A stretch of 64,000 nucleotides of DNA from Candidatus Eiseniibacteriota bacterium. Its GTDB lineage: Bacteria > Eisenbacteria > RBG-16-71-46 > CAIMUX01 > VGJL01. Every line of letters starts with the position of its first letter. Position 1 is the first letter of the stretch. Shown here one piece after another: positions 3,060-7,839 of this stretch. The translations under genes were made by a program, and so were the position numbers. Location of the stretch: assembly GCA_034679345.1 (NCBI GenBank), contig JAXDAY010000030.1:52925-116924 (forward strand), written 5' to 3'. The notes under the pieces were generated by a model. It did not search any database. It was not told the DNA's origin and saw only the letters and a list, made by a program, of their open reading frames with translations.

Positions 3060-3786
3060 GGCGCTGCTGCGGGTCCGCGCGCTCGAGAAGGAGTTCGTCG
3101 CTCCCGGAGGAATCTTGCGGGTTCTGCGCGGGATCGACCTCGATCTGGGCCAGGGCGAGATCCACGTCGTCCTGGGCGCCTCAGGAGTGGGGAAGAGCAC
3201 CCTCCTGCACATCGTGGGCGCGCTGGATCGCCCCACCCGAGGCGGAATCGAGTTTCGCGGGGAGGATCTCTTCCGGCGCAGCGACGCGGATCTGGCGCGA
3301 TTCCGCAACCGGCACGTCGGCTTCGTCTTCCAGTTCCATCACCTCTTGCCCGAATTCACGGCGCTCGAGAATGTCATGATGCCCGGGCTGATCGGCGGAG
3401 CCTCCCTCGCGGAGGGGCGCAGTAGGGCGCGAGAGCTTCTCGCCCAGGTGGGCCTCAGCGAGCGGGAGGGGCACAAGCCAAACGCTCTCTCCGGAGGCGA
3501 ACAGCAGCGAGTCGCCGTCGCCAGGGCCCTCTTCCGCGAGCCCCTGCTGGTGATTGCCGATGAACCCTCCGGAAATCTCGACCCGGAGACGGCCGAGCGG
3601 CTCCATGCCCTGGTGTATACTCTGGCCAGGGAGCGTGGCCAGAGCTGGCTCATCGCCACGCATAATGAAAGCCTCGCGCGAGTTGCCGATAATAGAAGTA
3701 GGCTGATCCAGGGCCGGCTGATCCCGGAGGATCCGGGAGAGGGCCCGGGACCCGTTGAGGCTGCGGAAAGGACTCAGGGAGCGTGA
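3052..3786 (+). CDS. lolD: Lipoprotein-releasing system ATP-binding protein LolD
   Basis: Walker A GASGVGKST, ABC signature LSGGEQQRVAVARAL, Walker B LLVIADEPSGNLD; overlaps the upstream permease gene. Confidence 0.9.
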   Translation: MSEALLRVRALEKEFVAPGGILRVLRGIDLDLGQGEIHVVLGASGVGKSTLLHIVGALDRPTRGGIEFRGEDLFRRSDADLARFRNRHVGFVFQFHHLLPEFTALENVMMPGLIGGASLAEGRSRARELLAQVGLSEREGHKPNALSGGEQQRVAVARALFREPLLVIADEPSGNLDPETAERLHALVYTLARERGQSWLIATHNESLARVADNRSRLIQGRLIPEDPGEGPGPVEAAERTQGA

Positions 3787-4301
3787 AGTGCCAGGTGTGC
3801 GGCGAGGCCGAGGCCTCCATCCACTTCAAGGACCTGCGGGGCGAGCAGGTGCAGGAGATGCATCTCTGCGCCAGCTGCGCGGTTGAGAAGGGATTCCACA
3901 CCCTCGTCGAGCAGCAGAAGGCCTCCTTCCAGCAGAACCTCCTCTGGATGGCCGAGGGGATCTATCCAGAGGGAGTCGGCAAGCTCGCCGCCCTGCAATG
4001 CGAGCACTGCGGGCTGCGCTACAGCGAGTTCACCGAGATCGGCCGACTCGGGTGCGCCCGCTGCTATGACGCCTTCGACACGCAGCTGCGCCGCCTCATG
4101 CGGCGGATCCACGGTGGGACTCGCCACACGGGAAAGTCGCCGGGGAGAGCCGAGGCTCCCGCCGGGCGGGACGAACAGCTCCGCCGGCTTCAGGAGGAGC
4201 TCAGGCGCGCGGTCTCATCCGAGCGTTACGAGGAGGCCGCGAGGATTCGCGACCAGATCCGCCAGTTGGAGGCGGCTCCCGCGGAGGGGGGCTCCGGTTG
4301 A
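3783..4301 (+). CDS. mcsA: McsA-like activator of protein-arginine kinase (four CxxC zinc fingers plus a C-terminal UVR domain)
   Basis: MKCQVCGE, CASC, CEHC and CARC give four CxxC pairs; the C-terminal UVR-like EQLRRLQEELRRAVSSERYEEAARIRDQIRQLE; a GTGA overlap with lolD and an overlap with mcsB. Confidence 0.75.
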   Translation: MKCQVCGEAEASIHFKDLRGEQVQEMHLCASCAVEKGFHTLVEQQKASFQQNLLWMAEGIYPEGVGKLAALQCEHCGLRYSEFTEIGRLGCARCYDAFDTQLRRLMRRIHGGTRHTGKSPGRAEAPAGRDEQLRRLQEELRRAVSSERYEEAARIRDQIRQLEAAPAEGGSG

Positions 4302-5401
4302 TCTCCATCGACTCGATGCTCGTCGGACAGGGGCGGTGGTTTGGCGGCAGCGGGCCGCGCGCGGACGAGATCCTCTCGACGCGCGTCCGGCTTGCGCGCA
4401 ACATCCGTGACGCCCGATTCGTCGCCCGCTGCCGGGAGGAGGAGCTCTCCGATATATTCCAGCGCGTCGGCGCGGCGCTGCGTGGGTCGACATCGTTGAA
4501 GGGTGGAATGGTCCGGGCCGTCGAGGAGCTCGGAGTCCTGGATCGGCAATTCCTGCTCGAGCGCCACCTCGTCTCTCACGACATGGCGGCGGAGGCGCGG
4601 CATCGCGGAGTCGCGGTCGGCCCCGACGAATCGCTCAGCGTGATGGTCAACGAAGAAGACCATCTGAGGATTCAGTCGCTGCGGAGCGGCCTCGATCTGG
4701 AAGGCGCCTGGCGGGCGGCGGGCCGGCTCGACGACGAGCTTTCCGCGAGCGTCGCCTACGCGTATCACGACGAGTTCGGCTATCTCACCGCCTGTCCCAC
4801 AAACGTCGGCACCGGAATGCGCGCAAGCGTGCTGGTGCATCTCCCGGCGCTCGTGCTCACCCAGCGGATCAAGAAGGTCTTGGCGGGGATCACGCAGGTC
4901 GGCTTCACGGTGCGGGGCTTCCACGGCGAGGGGAGTGACGTGATCGGCAACTTCTTCCAGGTCTCGAACCAGGTGACCCTGGGCGTGACCGAGGCGAGCA
5001 CGCTCGAGAAGCTGCAAGGGATCGTGCTTCAAGTGCTCGACATGGAGGCCAAGGCGCGGGAATCTCTCCTCAGGGACGCGCGCGTCCAGATCGAGGACAA
5101 GATCTGCAGAGCGTATGCGACGCTGCGCTACGCGCGGCTTCTCTCGACTCAGGAGTGCATGGGGATCCTCTCGGCGATCCGCTTCGGCGTGACCCTGGGG
5201 ATGGCTCCCCTGCCGGACACGGGAACCCTGAACGCGCTGCTCCTGTATACCCAACCGGCGCATCTTCAGAAGCTGGCCGGGAGGGAGCTGTCATCGTCAG
5301 CCCGCAACGAGTACCGGGCTGCCTGGATTCAAGAGCGACTGAAGGTGACCGATGCGCCGCGCCCCGGGAACGGGACGGCGGCTGGAGGCAGAGACCAGTG
5401 A
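4298..5401 (+). CDS. mcsB: Protein-arginine kinase McsB (ATP:guanido phosphotransferase family)
   Basis: Phosphagen-kinase signature [13 protein letters not shown]; 367 aa; lies between the mcsA-like gene and clpC, as in the Firmicutes ctsR-mcsA-mcsB-clpC operon. Confidence 0.85.
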
Positions 5402-7839
5402 CGCACGACAAGTTCACCGAGAGGGTCCGCAAGGTCATCTTCCTCGCCCGGGAGGAGGCCAGCCGGCTCCAGCACGACTCGATCGGCACCGAGCACCTCC
5501 TCCTCGGCCTGATCCGCGAGGGGGAGGGGATCGCGGCGAACGTCCTGGCCAATCTCGGGCTCGATCTGGATGTGATCCGCAGCGCCGTCGAGAGCATGGT
5601 CTCCCAGACGGGCGGGACCCTCACGATCGGGGAGATCCCCTTCACCTCGAACGCCAAGCGCGTCCTGGAGCTCGCGGTCGACGAGGCCCGCCAGCTCAAC
5701 CACAACTATATCGGCACCGAGCACCTCCTTCTGGGCCTGATCCGGGAGGGGGAGGGGGTCGCCGCGAAGGTCCTGACCGACATGGGAGTCGACCGCAAGA
5801 AGGTCCGCGACGAGACGCTGAAGCTCCTCGGAGGCCCTCCCCAAGGAAACGCCCCGGATCAGGAGGAGAAGAGCGAGACCCCCAGCCTGAACCAGTTCGG
5901 CCGTGATCTGACCCAGTTGGCCCGTGAAGGCAAGCTCGACCCGATCTTCGGAAGGGAGCCGGAGATCGAACGCGTGATCCAGATCCTTTGCAGGCGGAAG
6001 AAGAACAACCCGATTCTGATCGGAGAGCCCGGCGTGGGCAAGACGGCGATCGTCGAGGGTCTCGCCCAGCAGATCGTCGAGGGGCGGGTCCCGGAGTTGC
6101 TGCGCAACCGCAGGCTGATCACCCTTGACCTCGCAAGTGTTGTCGCTGGAACGAAATATCGCGGACAATTCGAGGAACGCTTGAAGAATATCATGAACGA
6201 GATCCGCGAGGCGAACGACACGATCATCTTCATCGATGAGCTGCACACGATCGTGGGCGCCGGCGGCGCCGAGGGCGCGATCGACGCCTCGAACATGCTG
6301 AAGCCCGCCCTTTCCCGCGGAGAGCTGCAATGCATCGGCGCCACGACCCTCGATGAGTACCGCAAGTATATCGAGAAGGACGGCGCTCTGGAGCGGCGCT
6401 TCCAGATGATCATCGTCGAGTCGCCCAGCGTCGAGGAGACGATCCAGATCCTCAGGGGGCTCCGCGACAAGTACGAGGCGCACCACCGCGTCCGCTACAC
6501 CGACGAGGCGCTGGTGGCCGCCGTCAAGCTCGCGGATCGCTTCATCACCGACCGCCACCTGCCCGACAAGGCGATCGACGTGATCGACGAGGCCGGCGCC
6601 CGGGCACGGCTCTCGATCCAGACGCAGCCGACCGAGCTGCGCGACCTCGACCGCGAGATCGAGAAGATCGCCGGCGAGAAGGAGGCGGCGATCCGGGCGC
6701 AGGAGTTCGAGAAGGCGGCCTCCTTCCGCGACAAGGAGAAGGCGCTGCGCCAGGAGTACTTCCGCCTCAAGAAGGAATGGAACGAAACGAAGTCCGTGCG
6801 GAGGGCCGAGGTGACCGATGACGACATCGCGACGGTCATCTCCCGGATGACGAAGATCCCGATGTCGAAGCTCGAGGAGCGCGAGCAGGAGAAGCTCCTG
6901 CACATCGAGGAGGAGCTCTCGAAACATGTCGTCGGGCAGGAGGAGGCGGTCACGGCCATCGCGAAGGCGATCCGCCGCAACCGCGCCGGTCTGCGGGATC
7001 CCCGCCGGCCGATCGGCACCTTCATCTTCCTGGGCCCGACCGGCGTCGGCAAGACCGAGCTCGCGCGCGTGATCGCGCAGTTCCTCTTCAGCGATCCGGA
7101 CGCCCTGATCCGGGTCGACATGAGCGAGTATATGGAGAAGTTCTCCGTCTCGCGGCTGGTCGGCGCTCCCCCGGGGTATGTCGGCTACGAGGAGGGAGGA
7201 CAGCTCACGGAGCGGGTCCGACGGAAGCCCTACTCTGTGGTCCTCCTCGACGAGATCGAGAAAGCGCACCCCGATGTCTTCAACATCCTGCTGCAGGTCC
7301 TCGAGGACGGGCAGCTCACCGACAGCCTCAAGCGGAAGGTCAACTTCAAGAACACGGTCCTCATCATGACCTCGAATATTGGCGCCCGACTCATTCGCGG
7401 ACAGGGACGTCTCGGGTTCCAGAAGCAGGACGACGAGGTGACCTACGCCCAGATGAAGTCGACGGTGATGGACGAGGTTCGCAAGATCTTCAATCCCGAG
7501 TTCCTGAACCGGATCGACGAGATCATCGTCTTCAAGAGCCTCGACAGGACGCAGCTCGAGAAGATCGTGGAGATCCTCCTGAACCAGGTGCGGGAGAGAC
7601 TGAAGGACCGCGACATCATCTTGACGATGACGCCGGGCGCGATGAGCCTGATCCTCGAGAAGGGTTACGATCCCGCGCTGGGCGCGCGACCCCTGCGCCG
7701 GGCCATTCAGCGACTCATCGAGGATCCCCTCTCCGAGTTGGTGATGCGCGGAAAGGTTCGCCCGGGCATCGAAGTCAAGGTCTCCAAGCGCGGCGATGAG
7801 CTGGCATTCGAGGAAAAAGTGCCCGAGGTCTCCCGGTAA
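5398..7839 (+). CDS. clpC: ATP-dependent Clp protease ATP-binding subunit ClpC (Clp/Hsp100 AAA+ with two Clp_N repeats and a UVR linker)
   Basis: The true start is probably the GTG at 5398, which overlaps the mcsB stop (GTGA); the ORF track instead extends upstream to 5155. The Clp_N repeats appear twice as [16 protein letters not shown], Walker [10 protein letters not shown], and a second AAA+ module [12 protein letters not shown]. Confidence 0.9.

Follow-up and report, generated by a model that had tools for sequence, protein, structure and literature searches.

An mcsA-mcsB-clpC module with no ctsR at its locus adjoins putative lipoprotein-release genes in Candidatus Eiseniibacteriota and other diderm bacteria

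We analyzed a 64-kb stretch of DNA from the metagenome-assembled genome (MAG) of a Candidatus Eiseniibacteriota bacterium (contig JAXDAY010000030.1 of assembly GCA_034679345.1; 64,000 nucleotides (nt) with a G+C content of 65-70%), hereafter called the window, that carries the genes of an arginine-phosphorylation system made up of the protein arginine kinase McsB, its activator McsA and the class I AAA+ unfoldase ClpC. Annotation of the window's open reading frames (ORFs) with Pfam and NCBIfam (equivalog cut-offs) places these three genes in an uninterrupted, co-directional array that extends from position 3 to 19185 on the + strand, which is also the strand of every array gene given below. 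Specifically, mcsA (3783-4301) has a GTG start inside the stop codon of a lolD-like ATP-binding cassette (ABC) ATPase gene (3052-3786), giving a 4-nt GTGA overlap, mcsB (4298-5401) overlaps mcsA by 4 nt at a TTGA and has an alternative ATG at 4316, and clpC (5398-7839), which codes for a protein of 813 amino acids (aa), overlaps mcsB by 4 nt with its own GTG start in a second GTGA. The raw ORF list begins clpC at 5155, which lies inside mcsB; the true start is the GTG at 5398. The lolD-like gene in turn overlaps by 8 nt a single lolC/E-like gene for a type VII ABC permease (1821-3059; MacB_PCD and FtsX domains, PF12704 and PF02687), referred to below as lolE, which follows purF (419-1816; amidophosphoribosyltransferase, TIGR01134 513.8 bits relative to a cut-off of 350) after a gap of 4 nt, and the array opens with an ORF at 3-419. 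Both lol assignments stem from best NCBIfam matches that fall under their cut-offs, TIGR02212 (lolCE) for the permease with 345 bits, just under the cut-off of 362, and TIGR02211 (LolD) for the ATPase with 255 bits relative to a cut-off of 307.75. A preliminary description of this DNA had reported mcsA, mcsB and clpC at these positions together with their envelope neighbours, and all of these features are present as it gave them. Window positions 1474-6250 and 3309-6045 are matched at 100% identity by contigs of two other sequencing runs, so the arrangement from lolE to clpC is not an assembly artefact.

The window McsB (367 aa) exhibits a score of 403.9 bits to NF002194, the protein-arginine-kinase equivalog (cut-off 385), and of 367.5 bits to the Bacillus-specific model NF053707, which is under that model's cut-off of 500. 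It contains the kinase domain PF00217 (217 bits), lacks the phosphagen-kinase N-terminal domain and has instead the McsB_C dimerisation domain (PF27454) at its C-terminus, and its residues 12-350 can be aligned end to end with the solved McsB structures of Geobacillus and Bacillus, 6FH1 (residues 15-355 of that structure) and 8WTB_A. The preliminary description had raised the question of whether this homologue lacks catalytic residues when aligned. The alignment has all of them in place, with NEEDH (N119-H123), C167 (in CPTNVGTG), R125, R176, R207 and E212 as in Bacillus subtilis and invariant in the 83 sequences used to score McsB residue conservation. In regards to the phosphoarginine (pArg) receptor site, which is defined in B. 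subtilis McsB by R337, D338, R341 and S285 (PMC8370763), R337 and R341 are present while D338 is replaced by N and S285 by T. As a separate observation, a 552-aa protein (P0067) that is 58% identical to the window McsB contains both UVR and kinase domains and is apparently a natural McsA-McsB fusion.

The other two proteins are likewise intact. McsA has four CxxC motifs (residues 3, 29, 73 and 91) that form two zinc-finger pairs, an HTGK loop and a coiled coil/UVR region (PF02151), and its full length aligns with B. subtilis McsA (8WTB_B) with an E value of 5.5e-24. ClpC matches B. subtilis ClpC (3J3S) with 1046 bits across residues 3-796 at about 60% identity, falls under the equivalog cut-offs of both ClpB and ClpA, and exhibits the Pfam domains Clp_N (two copies), AAA, AAA_lid_9, UVR, AAA_2 and ClpB_D2-small. 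It contains two GTEH pArg sites at the equivalents of E32 and E106, the residues known as pArg-binding determinants of ClpC (PMC12583610), a short M-domain that carries a UVR motif and the equivalent of F436, and an LGF ClpP loop at 672-674. The GTEH, M-domain Phe and LGF motifs are all kept in 50 linked ClpC proteins from relatives of the window locus. Overall, everything that a working pArg-ClpC(P) pathway requires at the level of protein sequence is present, and McsB is predicted to be an active kinase that would support pArg-dependent degradation.

Related loci were gathered with an McsB peptide-pattern scan of one genome per GTDB species (185,579 species), which returned at least 577 of them. 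The layout and lineage counts for diderms given here refer to the best 80 of these at least 577 McsB loci, matched by tblastn with the window proteins, and the Bacillales comparison set consists of 80 Bacillales-like metagenome loci that were fetched with B. subtilis McsB as the query. All of the best 80 McsB loci are from diderms, namely Eisenbacteria, Gemmatimonadota, Omnitrophota, Planctomycetota, Latescibacterota and one MAG labelled Ignavibacteria. Identity to the window McsB is 55-56% in Eisenbacteria, 48-53% in Gemmatimonadota, 42-48% in Planctomycetota and Omnitrophota, and 40-42% in Bacillales, and the nearest McsB proteins with a source name are labelled Eisenbacteria and are called 'protein arginine kinase' in the databases. 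The module had earlier been described as Firmicutes-type, with a phylogeny of McsB against Firmicutes homologues proposed as a check. Read as foreign to diderms, this label does not hold for the 80 loci, and a neighbour-joining tree of McsB that includes two Bacillales references follows the phyla: the diderm sequences cluster by phylum, with the Bacillales references separate on a long branch of their own. The Firmicutes side of that comparison thus consists of these two references. Two database labels in the set look wrong, as L004, labelled 'Bacteroidota', is near-identical in layout and sequence to the Eisenbacteria locus L003, and L022, labelled 'Alcaligenaceae', carries a Planctomycetota-type mcsA-mcsA-mcsB locus.

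The gene order of the window is conserved well beyond its own lineage. Among informative Gemmatimonadota loci, lolD lies immediately 5' of mcsA in 33 of 33, mcsB is followed by clpC in 32 of 32, and clpC is followed by bamA in 27 of 27, with the series usually continuing to skp, lpxD, lpxC-fabZ and lpxA. The Eisenbacteria-like loci all exhibit the order lolE-lolD-mcsA-mcsB-clpC-bamA, and two closer relatives (McsB 66-70% identical) extend it in both directions to htrA-purB-purL-purQ-hyp-purF-lolE-lolD-mcsA-mcsB-clpC-bamA-skp-lpxD-lpxC/fabZ-lpxA-gfo-lpxB. Translational coupling of mcsA to lolD through the GTGA, a point made in the preliminary description, is seen in the window and is kept in 41 loci of several phyla where the lolD-mcsA gap was measured: the median distance is 0 nt, with an overlap in 19 loci, no more than 20 nt in 28 and no more than 60 nt in 37. 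For example, cTGATG forms the lolD-mcsA junction in many Gemmatimonadales, and L164 (McsB 66% identical) has stop/start overlaps of 4 to 8 nt from lolE through clpC, as does the window. One locus, L002, seemed to have another gene upstream of mcsA; this was rejected, as L002 matches the window at 100% identity and differs only in how genes were called on a truncated contig.

The block lolE-lolD-mcsA-mcsB-clpC is also found in three MAGs of other or unassigned lineages (L037, L040 and L049) and, with an aminotransferase class IV gene between lolD and mcsA, in the Omnitrophota. Because this layout is conserved in at least two phyla, the arrangement is old and not a quirk of one genome, and the five-gene block is ancient and common to Eisenbacteria, Gemmatimonadota, the Ignavibacteria-labelled MAG and, with its one inserted gene, Omnitrophota. 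What flanks it is more variable. The lysS gene lies directly 5' of lolE in 37 loci, and purF takes that slot in the Eisenbacteria sub-lineage of the window, an adjacency repeated in L164, L165 and the P0006 contig. On the other side, mlaE-mlaF-mlaD comes after clpC, with radA next, in the Omnitrophota (L008, at 13523-18299, and L016) and in the Planctomycetota-labelled L056, and L040 reads lysS-lolE-lolD-mcsA-mcsB-clpC followed by DJ-1 and fumarase genes. The Planctomycetota loci have mcsAB without lol genes, and clpC is directly downstream in only 4 of 17 informative loci. Two further observations from these lineages are that L008 contains an uncharacterised 334-aa ORF between clpC and mlaE, with weak homologues after clpC in L011 and L039, and that the Planctomycetota-type loci L022, L063, L072, L073 and L080 have two tandem mcsA-like genes 5' of mcsB.

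The same frame is recognizable in the Bacillales, where all 52 loci of sufficient length have mcsA-mcsB-clpC-radA and where L140, which has a long upstream flank, reads lysS, 16S-23S-5S rRNA, ctsR, mcsA, mcsB, clpC and radA. Most contigs of L083-L162 stop 0.8-2.4 kb 5' of mcsA, which is consistent with assembly breaks at the rRNA operon between lysS and ctsR that is intact in L140 (1732-6567). Since radA also follows clpC in Omnitrophota and some Planctomycetota, with lysS upstream as in Bacillales, the frame lysS ... mcsAB-clpC ... radA is shared between Firmicutes and diderm phyla, and the slot directly 5' of mcsA that ctsR holds in Bacillales is occupied in diderms by lolCE-lolD. No CtsR or HrcA homologue was detected by a Pfam scan of the 64-kb window, and tblastn with the L140 CtsR matched 70 of 80 Bacillales loci but, at E < 1, neither the window nor any of about 85 diderm loci. 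Within the window the CtsR operator box does not occur above chance and no CIRCE element was found. The earlier statement that no ctsR precedes mcsA is therefore borne out, both at the locus and across the whole window.

Turning to the transcription unit and its 3' boundary, there is no intergenic space for a promoter from lolE to clpC in the window. A weak sigma-70-like promoter candidate at 3665-3693, in the 3' end of lolD, matches 9 of 12 positions and is one of 2 such matches in 20 kb relative to 1.3 expected; it was not accepted because this patch encodes the ABC H-loop/D-loop and because the final T of its -10 element is C in L164 and G in L006. About 22 stretches of the window are equally AT-rich as this 3' patch of lolD. 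Codon usage at 3660-3700 is a curiosity of its own, with a run of A/T-ending codons (AAT GAA GTT GAT AAT AGA AGT) that is unusual at a third-position G+C content (GC3) near 0.8 and whose nucleotide sequence is in part shared by L164 and L006.

Downstream of clpC, a 49-nt spacer with a GGAG ribosome-binding site (7840-7888) leads to bamA (7889-10213; POTRA repeats and Omp85 barrel by Pfam, TIGR03303 464.9 bits, cut-off 297), whose ATG start at 7889, read from the sequence, begins a protein with a signal peptide. After a gap of 80 nt come skp (10294-10824) and then lpxD (10831-11889), an lpxC-fabZ fusion (11886-13202; one 438-aa ORF with PF03331 and PF07977), lpxA (13221-13994), a Gfo/Idh/MocA oxidoreductase gene (14003-15016), lpxB (15013-16140), a DUF374 gene (16137-16841), waaA (16838-18118) and lpxK (18115-19185); the lpxD, lpxA, oxidoreductase, lpxB, DUF374, waaA and lpxK assignments are from Pfam/NCBIfam. 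This downstream series of bamA, skp and lipid A genes is as the preliminary description had it. The lpxC-fabZ fusion is also found in Eisenbacteria relatives (L164 and the P0006 contig), and tblastn matches to it are obtained in most Gemmatimonadota loci.

Hairpins after clpC were assessed by ViennaRNA folding relative to shuffled controls in 36 relatives, and with dinucleotide-preserving shuffles in 14. The window spacer contains a hairpin at 7850-7866 with a 7-bp GC stem (CCGCGGC-CGC-GCCGCGG) and no U tract; its stability does not exceed that of shuffled sequences (z 0.57), and a terminator in this spacer was accordingly rejected. The spacer between clpC and bamA is longer in the relatives, at about 100-350 nt, and soon after the clpC stop nearly all of these spacers contain a long, very stable stem-loop (mean z -3.2, with z < -1.5 in 28 of 36; z <= -2 in 12 of 14 with the dinucleotide-preserving controls) with stems of up to 19 bp. 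Classical U tracts follow this hairpin in L010 and L005, and in the Gemmatimonadaceae it is followed by a recurrent GTGTATATT(G) that could be either a -10 element of a bamA promoter or a U-rich terminator tail. The sequence of the hairpins, which lie in the first ~100 nt after clpC in Gemmatimonadota loci among L007-L082, varies by species (e.g. L034:7172-7271, L031:10460-10559 and L078:9229-9328). It had been suggested that the array is co-transcribed through bamA to lpxK, a view that the strong terminator-like hairpins after clpC in most relatives do not support, although the window's own hairpin is weak. Because a strong hairpin of this kind parts clpC from bamA in most relatives, we limit the predicted operon to lol-mcsAB-clpC, which appears secure as a unit, and do not extend it to the whole array; bamA-skp-lpx is a conserved neighbour that probably forms a separate or attenuated transcription unit.

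Taken together, we consider it likely that in this diderm bacterium the window encodes a native, complete and CtsR-independent McsA-McsB-ClpC pArg system whose genes are expressed at the distal end of a lipoprotein-release operon. This reading builds on the gene content, conserved residues, junctions and synteny observed above; co-transcription and the mode of regulation are what the gene arrangement predicts. In the proposed pathway McsA, via its zinc fingers and coiled coil, would activate the McsB kinase, which would phosphorylate arginines of client proteins that are presumably unfolded or aberrant. The N-terminal domain of ClpC would then bind these pArg marks in its two GTEH pockets, and ClpC would unfold the client and hand it over via its LGF loops to a ClpP encoded elsewhere. 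The mcsA-mcsB-clpC genes would constitute the distal part of an operon that starts at, or upstream of, lolCE-lolD, and would be expressed by transcriptional read-through combined with stop/start translational coupling. Given the lack of CtsR and the position in a lol operon, their expression should therefore track that of a housekeeping envelope operon and not heat-shock de-repression. An operon with the lol genes is also suggested by the persistence of the block while its flanks change, whether lysS or purF precedes it and whether bamA, mlaEFD or an unrelated gene follows.

Several points weigh against this reading. The autophosphorylated R194 that clamps the B. subtilis McsB octamer (PMC8370763) is a lysine in the window McsB, as it is in 69 of 83 relatives. 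With the clamp residue a lysine, a gated octamer may form otherwise, and the octamer or its substrate gating may differ in the window protein from that of B. subtilis; this clamp is a mark of the B. subtilis octamer and not of the McsB family at large. McsA scores 137.3 bits to NF053706, under the cut-off of 210 of a model derived from Bacillus-type sequences. No gene for ClpP or for a YwlE-type pArg phosphatase turned up in the Pfam scan of the 64-kb window, so that a ClpP partner encoded elsewhere is assumed, and a ctsR gene could likewise lie elsewhere in the genome. A promoter may be present inside the 3' end of lolD. At the other end of the operon, a simple terminator scanner made no call on the L005 or L010 hairpins, and because the hairpin of the window is weak, a substantial share of transcripts may continue into bamA in this lineage.

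A different account of the neighbourhood is synteny inertia, whereby the locus is an inherited housekeeping super-operon without functional meaning, and we regard this as a serious possibility that falls somewhat short of being probable. The series lysS ... mcsA-mcsB-clpC ... radA is common to Bacillales (L140) and Omnitrophota/Planctomycetota and is thus older than the phyla, with genes of unrelated functions along it, and the block as a whole mixes genes for translation, purine synthesis, transport and proteostasis. Mixed content of this kind has a counterpart in E. coli, where dnaE and rnhB sit in the bamA-lpx cluster. The association with envelope genes is also broken in L040 and in the Planctomycetota, and hairpins follow clpC in most relatives. 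Inertia by itself accounts less readily for the fact that the block survives rearrangement on both of its flanks and that stop/start overlaps between lolD and mcsA recur in many species, and gene order is seldom kept across phyla without selection.

Functional coupling, in which pArg/ClpC(P) proteolysis is dedicated to or tuned for outer-membrane biogenesis and selection keeps the module at lolCDE and bamA/lpx or mlaEFD, appears to us rather unlikely. Such a system could clear lipoprotein or outer-membrane protein precursors that are stuck in the cytoplasm, or could degrade a rate-limiting enzyme such as LpxC-FabZ. The evidence for it is purely positional: the lolD-mcsA junction outlasts phylum-level divergence despite rearranged flanks, and the slot after clpC holds two different envelope sets, bamA-skp-lpx in Eisenbacteria and Gemmatimonadota and mlaE-mlaF-mlaD in Omnitrophota and L056. 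Yet lysS and purF, which are unrelated to the envelope, are joined to the block equally tightly, L040 has DJ-1 and fumarase genes and no envelope genes after clpC, Planctomycetota retain mcsAB without lol and often without clpC, and the terminator-like hairpins part clpC from bamA in most relatives. There are precedents for such control elsewhere, as ClpCP controls MurA, the first committed envelope enzyme, through ReoM (PMC7286690) and LpxC is under proteolytic control in enterobacteria, by an FtsH mechanism that is not general, with the regulators of other phyla unknown (PMC12444477). Inherited gene order explains the conserved neighbourhood as well as a functional link does, and we put forward the link between pArg/ClpC and the envelope as a hypothesis.

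More speculative, and in our estimate improbable, is a scenario in which (lysS)-lolCE-lolD-mcsA-mcsB-clpC-[outer-membrane genes]-(radA) is an ancestral locus, with pArg-directed ClpC proteolysis originally wired to outer-membrane biogenesis. If this were true, diderms of the Fibrobacterota-Chlorobiota-Bacteroidota (FCB) type would keep a cytoplasmic envelope checkpoint that clears untranslocated precursors or tunes LpxC-FabZ, and LolCDE activity would possibly be sensed through the LolD-McsA coupling. The ctsR-mcsA-mcsB-clpC-radA operon of Firmicutes would then be a remnant left after loss of the outer-membrane genes, with the repressor taking over. Finally, recent horizontal transfer of a Firmicutes clpC operon, minus ctsR, into the site between lolD and bamA would agree with the identical mcsA-mcsB-clpC order in Bacillus and with the ~60% identity to B. 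subtilis ClpC, but it is effectively refuted, and in our view barely credible, as the insertion point is common to all informative Gemmatimonadota and Eisenbacteria loci, the McsB tree tracks the phyla and sets the Bacillales apart on a long branch, the module genes have a GC3 of 0.79-0.87 in line with the adjoining genes, and ClpC is as similar (58-62%) to Gemmatimonadota proteins.

A few features elsewhere in the window are recorded here. The most AT-rich spot (31451-31537; 30% G+C over 40 nt) contains a TATAAT and is a likely promoter region, and just 3' of it lies an ORF for 226 aa (31606-32286) without a Pfam match. Further ORFs without a Pfam family (E <= 1e-5) are located at 30003-30857, 36718-38343, 40329-41471, 46591-47592 and 52640-53563. 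That at 46591-47592 adjoins an LptE-like gene (47586-48548) and a sigma-54 response regulator/histidine kinase pair (48185-51378).

The proteins described here are ordinary orthologues, and what is new is the genomic and regulatory context of a known system. The literature treats the pArg/ClpC tag as a Gram-positive, CtsR-centred system, and a 2024 structural paper notes Gram-negative McsB homologues in 'some Proteobacteria', with activity never shown (PMC11046695). Literature searches yielded nothing pertinent on McsB in combination with Gemmatimonadota, Planctomycetota or Eisenbacteria, and those that paired McsB with BamA, LolD or lpxD returned no paper describing the linkage. Nor did we find any mention in the searchable literature of how broadly the module occurs in FCB-type and Planctomycetota-Verrucomicrobiota-Chlamydiota (PVC)-type phyla, of the fact that every diderm locus sampled here lacks ctsR, of a conserved translational fusion with lolCDE that heads a beta-barrel assembly machinery (BAM)/lipid A cluster, or of the lysS/radA frame in common with Bacillus. 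The present analysis indicates that the full module is native to and widespread in Eisenbacteria, Gemmatimonadota, Omnitrophota, Planctomycetota and Latescibacterota without ctsR at the locus, and that in at least two phyla it is translationally joined to lipoprotein-release genes at the head of the BAM/lipid A cluster. This gives a testable hypothesis on cytoplasmic proteolytic control of outer-membrane biogenesis, where regulators of lipopolysaccharide outside the enterobacteria are largely unknown, and the lysS and radA flanks shared with Bacillus offer a new synteny marker for the diderm-to-monoderm debate.

Among known systems, ClpCP/ReoM-MurA in Firmicutes and FtsH/LapB-LpxC in enterobacteria also tie an AAA+ protease to envelope synthesis, a likeness that is one of analogy only, as no ReoM or LapB adaptor and no substrate link were identified in the window. 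The downstream half of the window locus is the same as the bamA-skp-lpxD-fabZ-lpxA-lpxB cluster of Proteobacteria and the outer-membrane cluster of diderm Firmicutes (PMC5007114); the literature found does not place mcsAB-clpC or lolCDE at the 5' border of the bamA-lpx cluster, and PMC5007114 never mentions Clp. Chlamydia trachomatis, likewise a diderm and the one in which these proteins have been studied, has McsAB and ClpC, and its ClpCP degrades arginine-phosphorylated casein, with no CtsR-centred role described (PMC10128030). Its mcsAB genes form a separate operon apart from clpC that is flanked by tRNA genes and is of suspected horizontal origin (PMC10128030), whereas the mcsA-mcsB-clpC genes of the window are contiguous, vertically inherited in FCB/PVC-type phyla and joined to lolCDE. 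The closest comparison is with the class III heat-shock operon ctsR-mcsA-mcsB-clpC(-radA-disA) of B. subtilis, which has orthologous genes in the same order, the same catalytic and ClpP-loop residues and largely the same pArg-receptor site, as well as the same frame, in that lysS lies 5' of the module in most diderm relatives and radA follows it in Omnitrophota and some Planctomycetota. The window differs from this operon in having no ctsR or operator at the locus, in the replacement of R194 by lysine, in having lolCE-lolD upstream with overlapping stop/start codons, and in that its clpC is followed by outer-membrane genes and not by radA.

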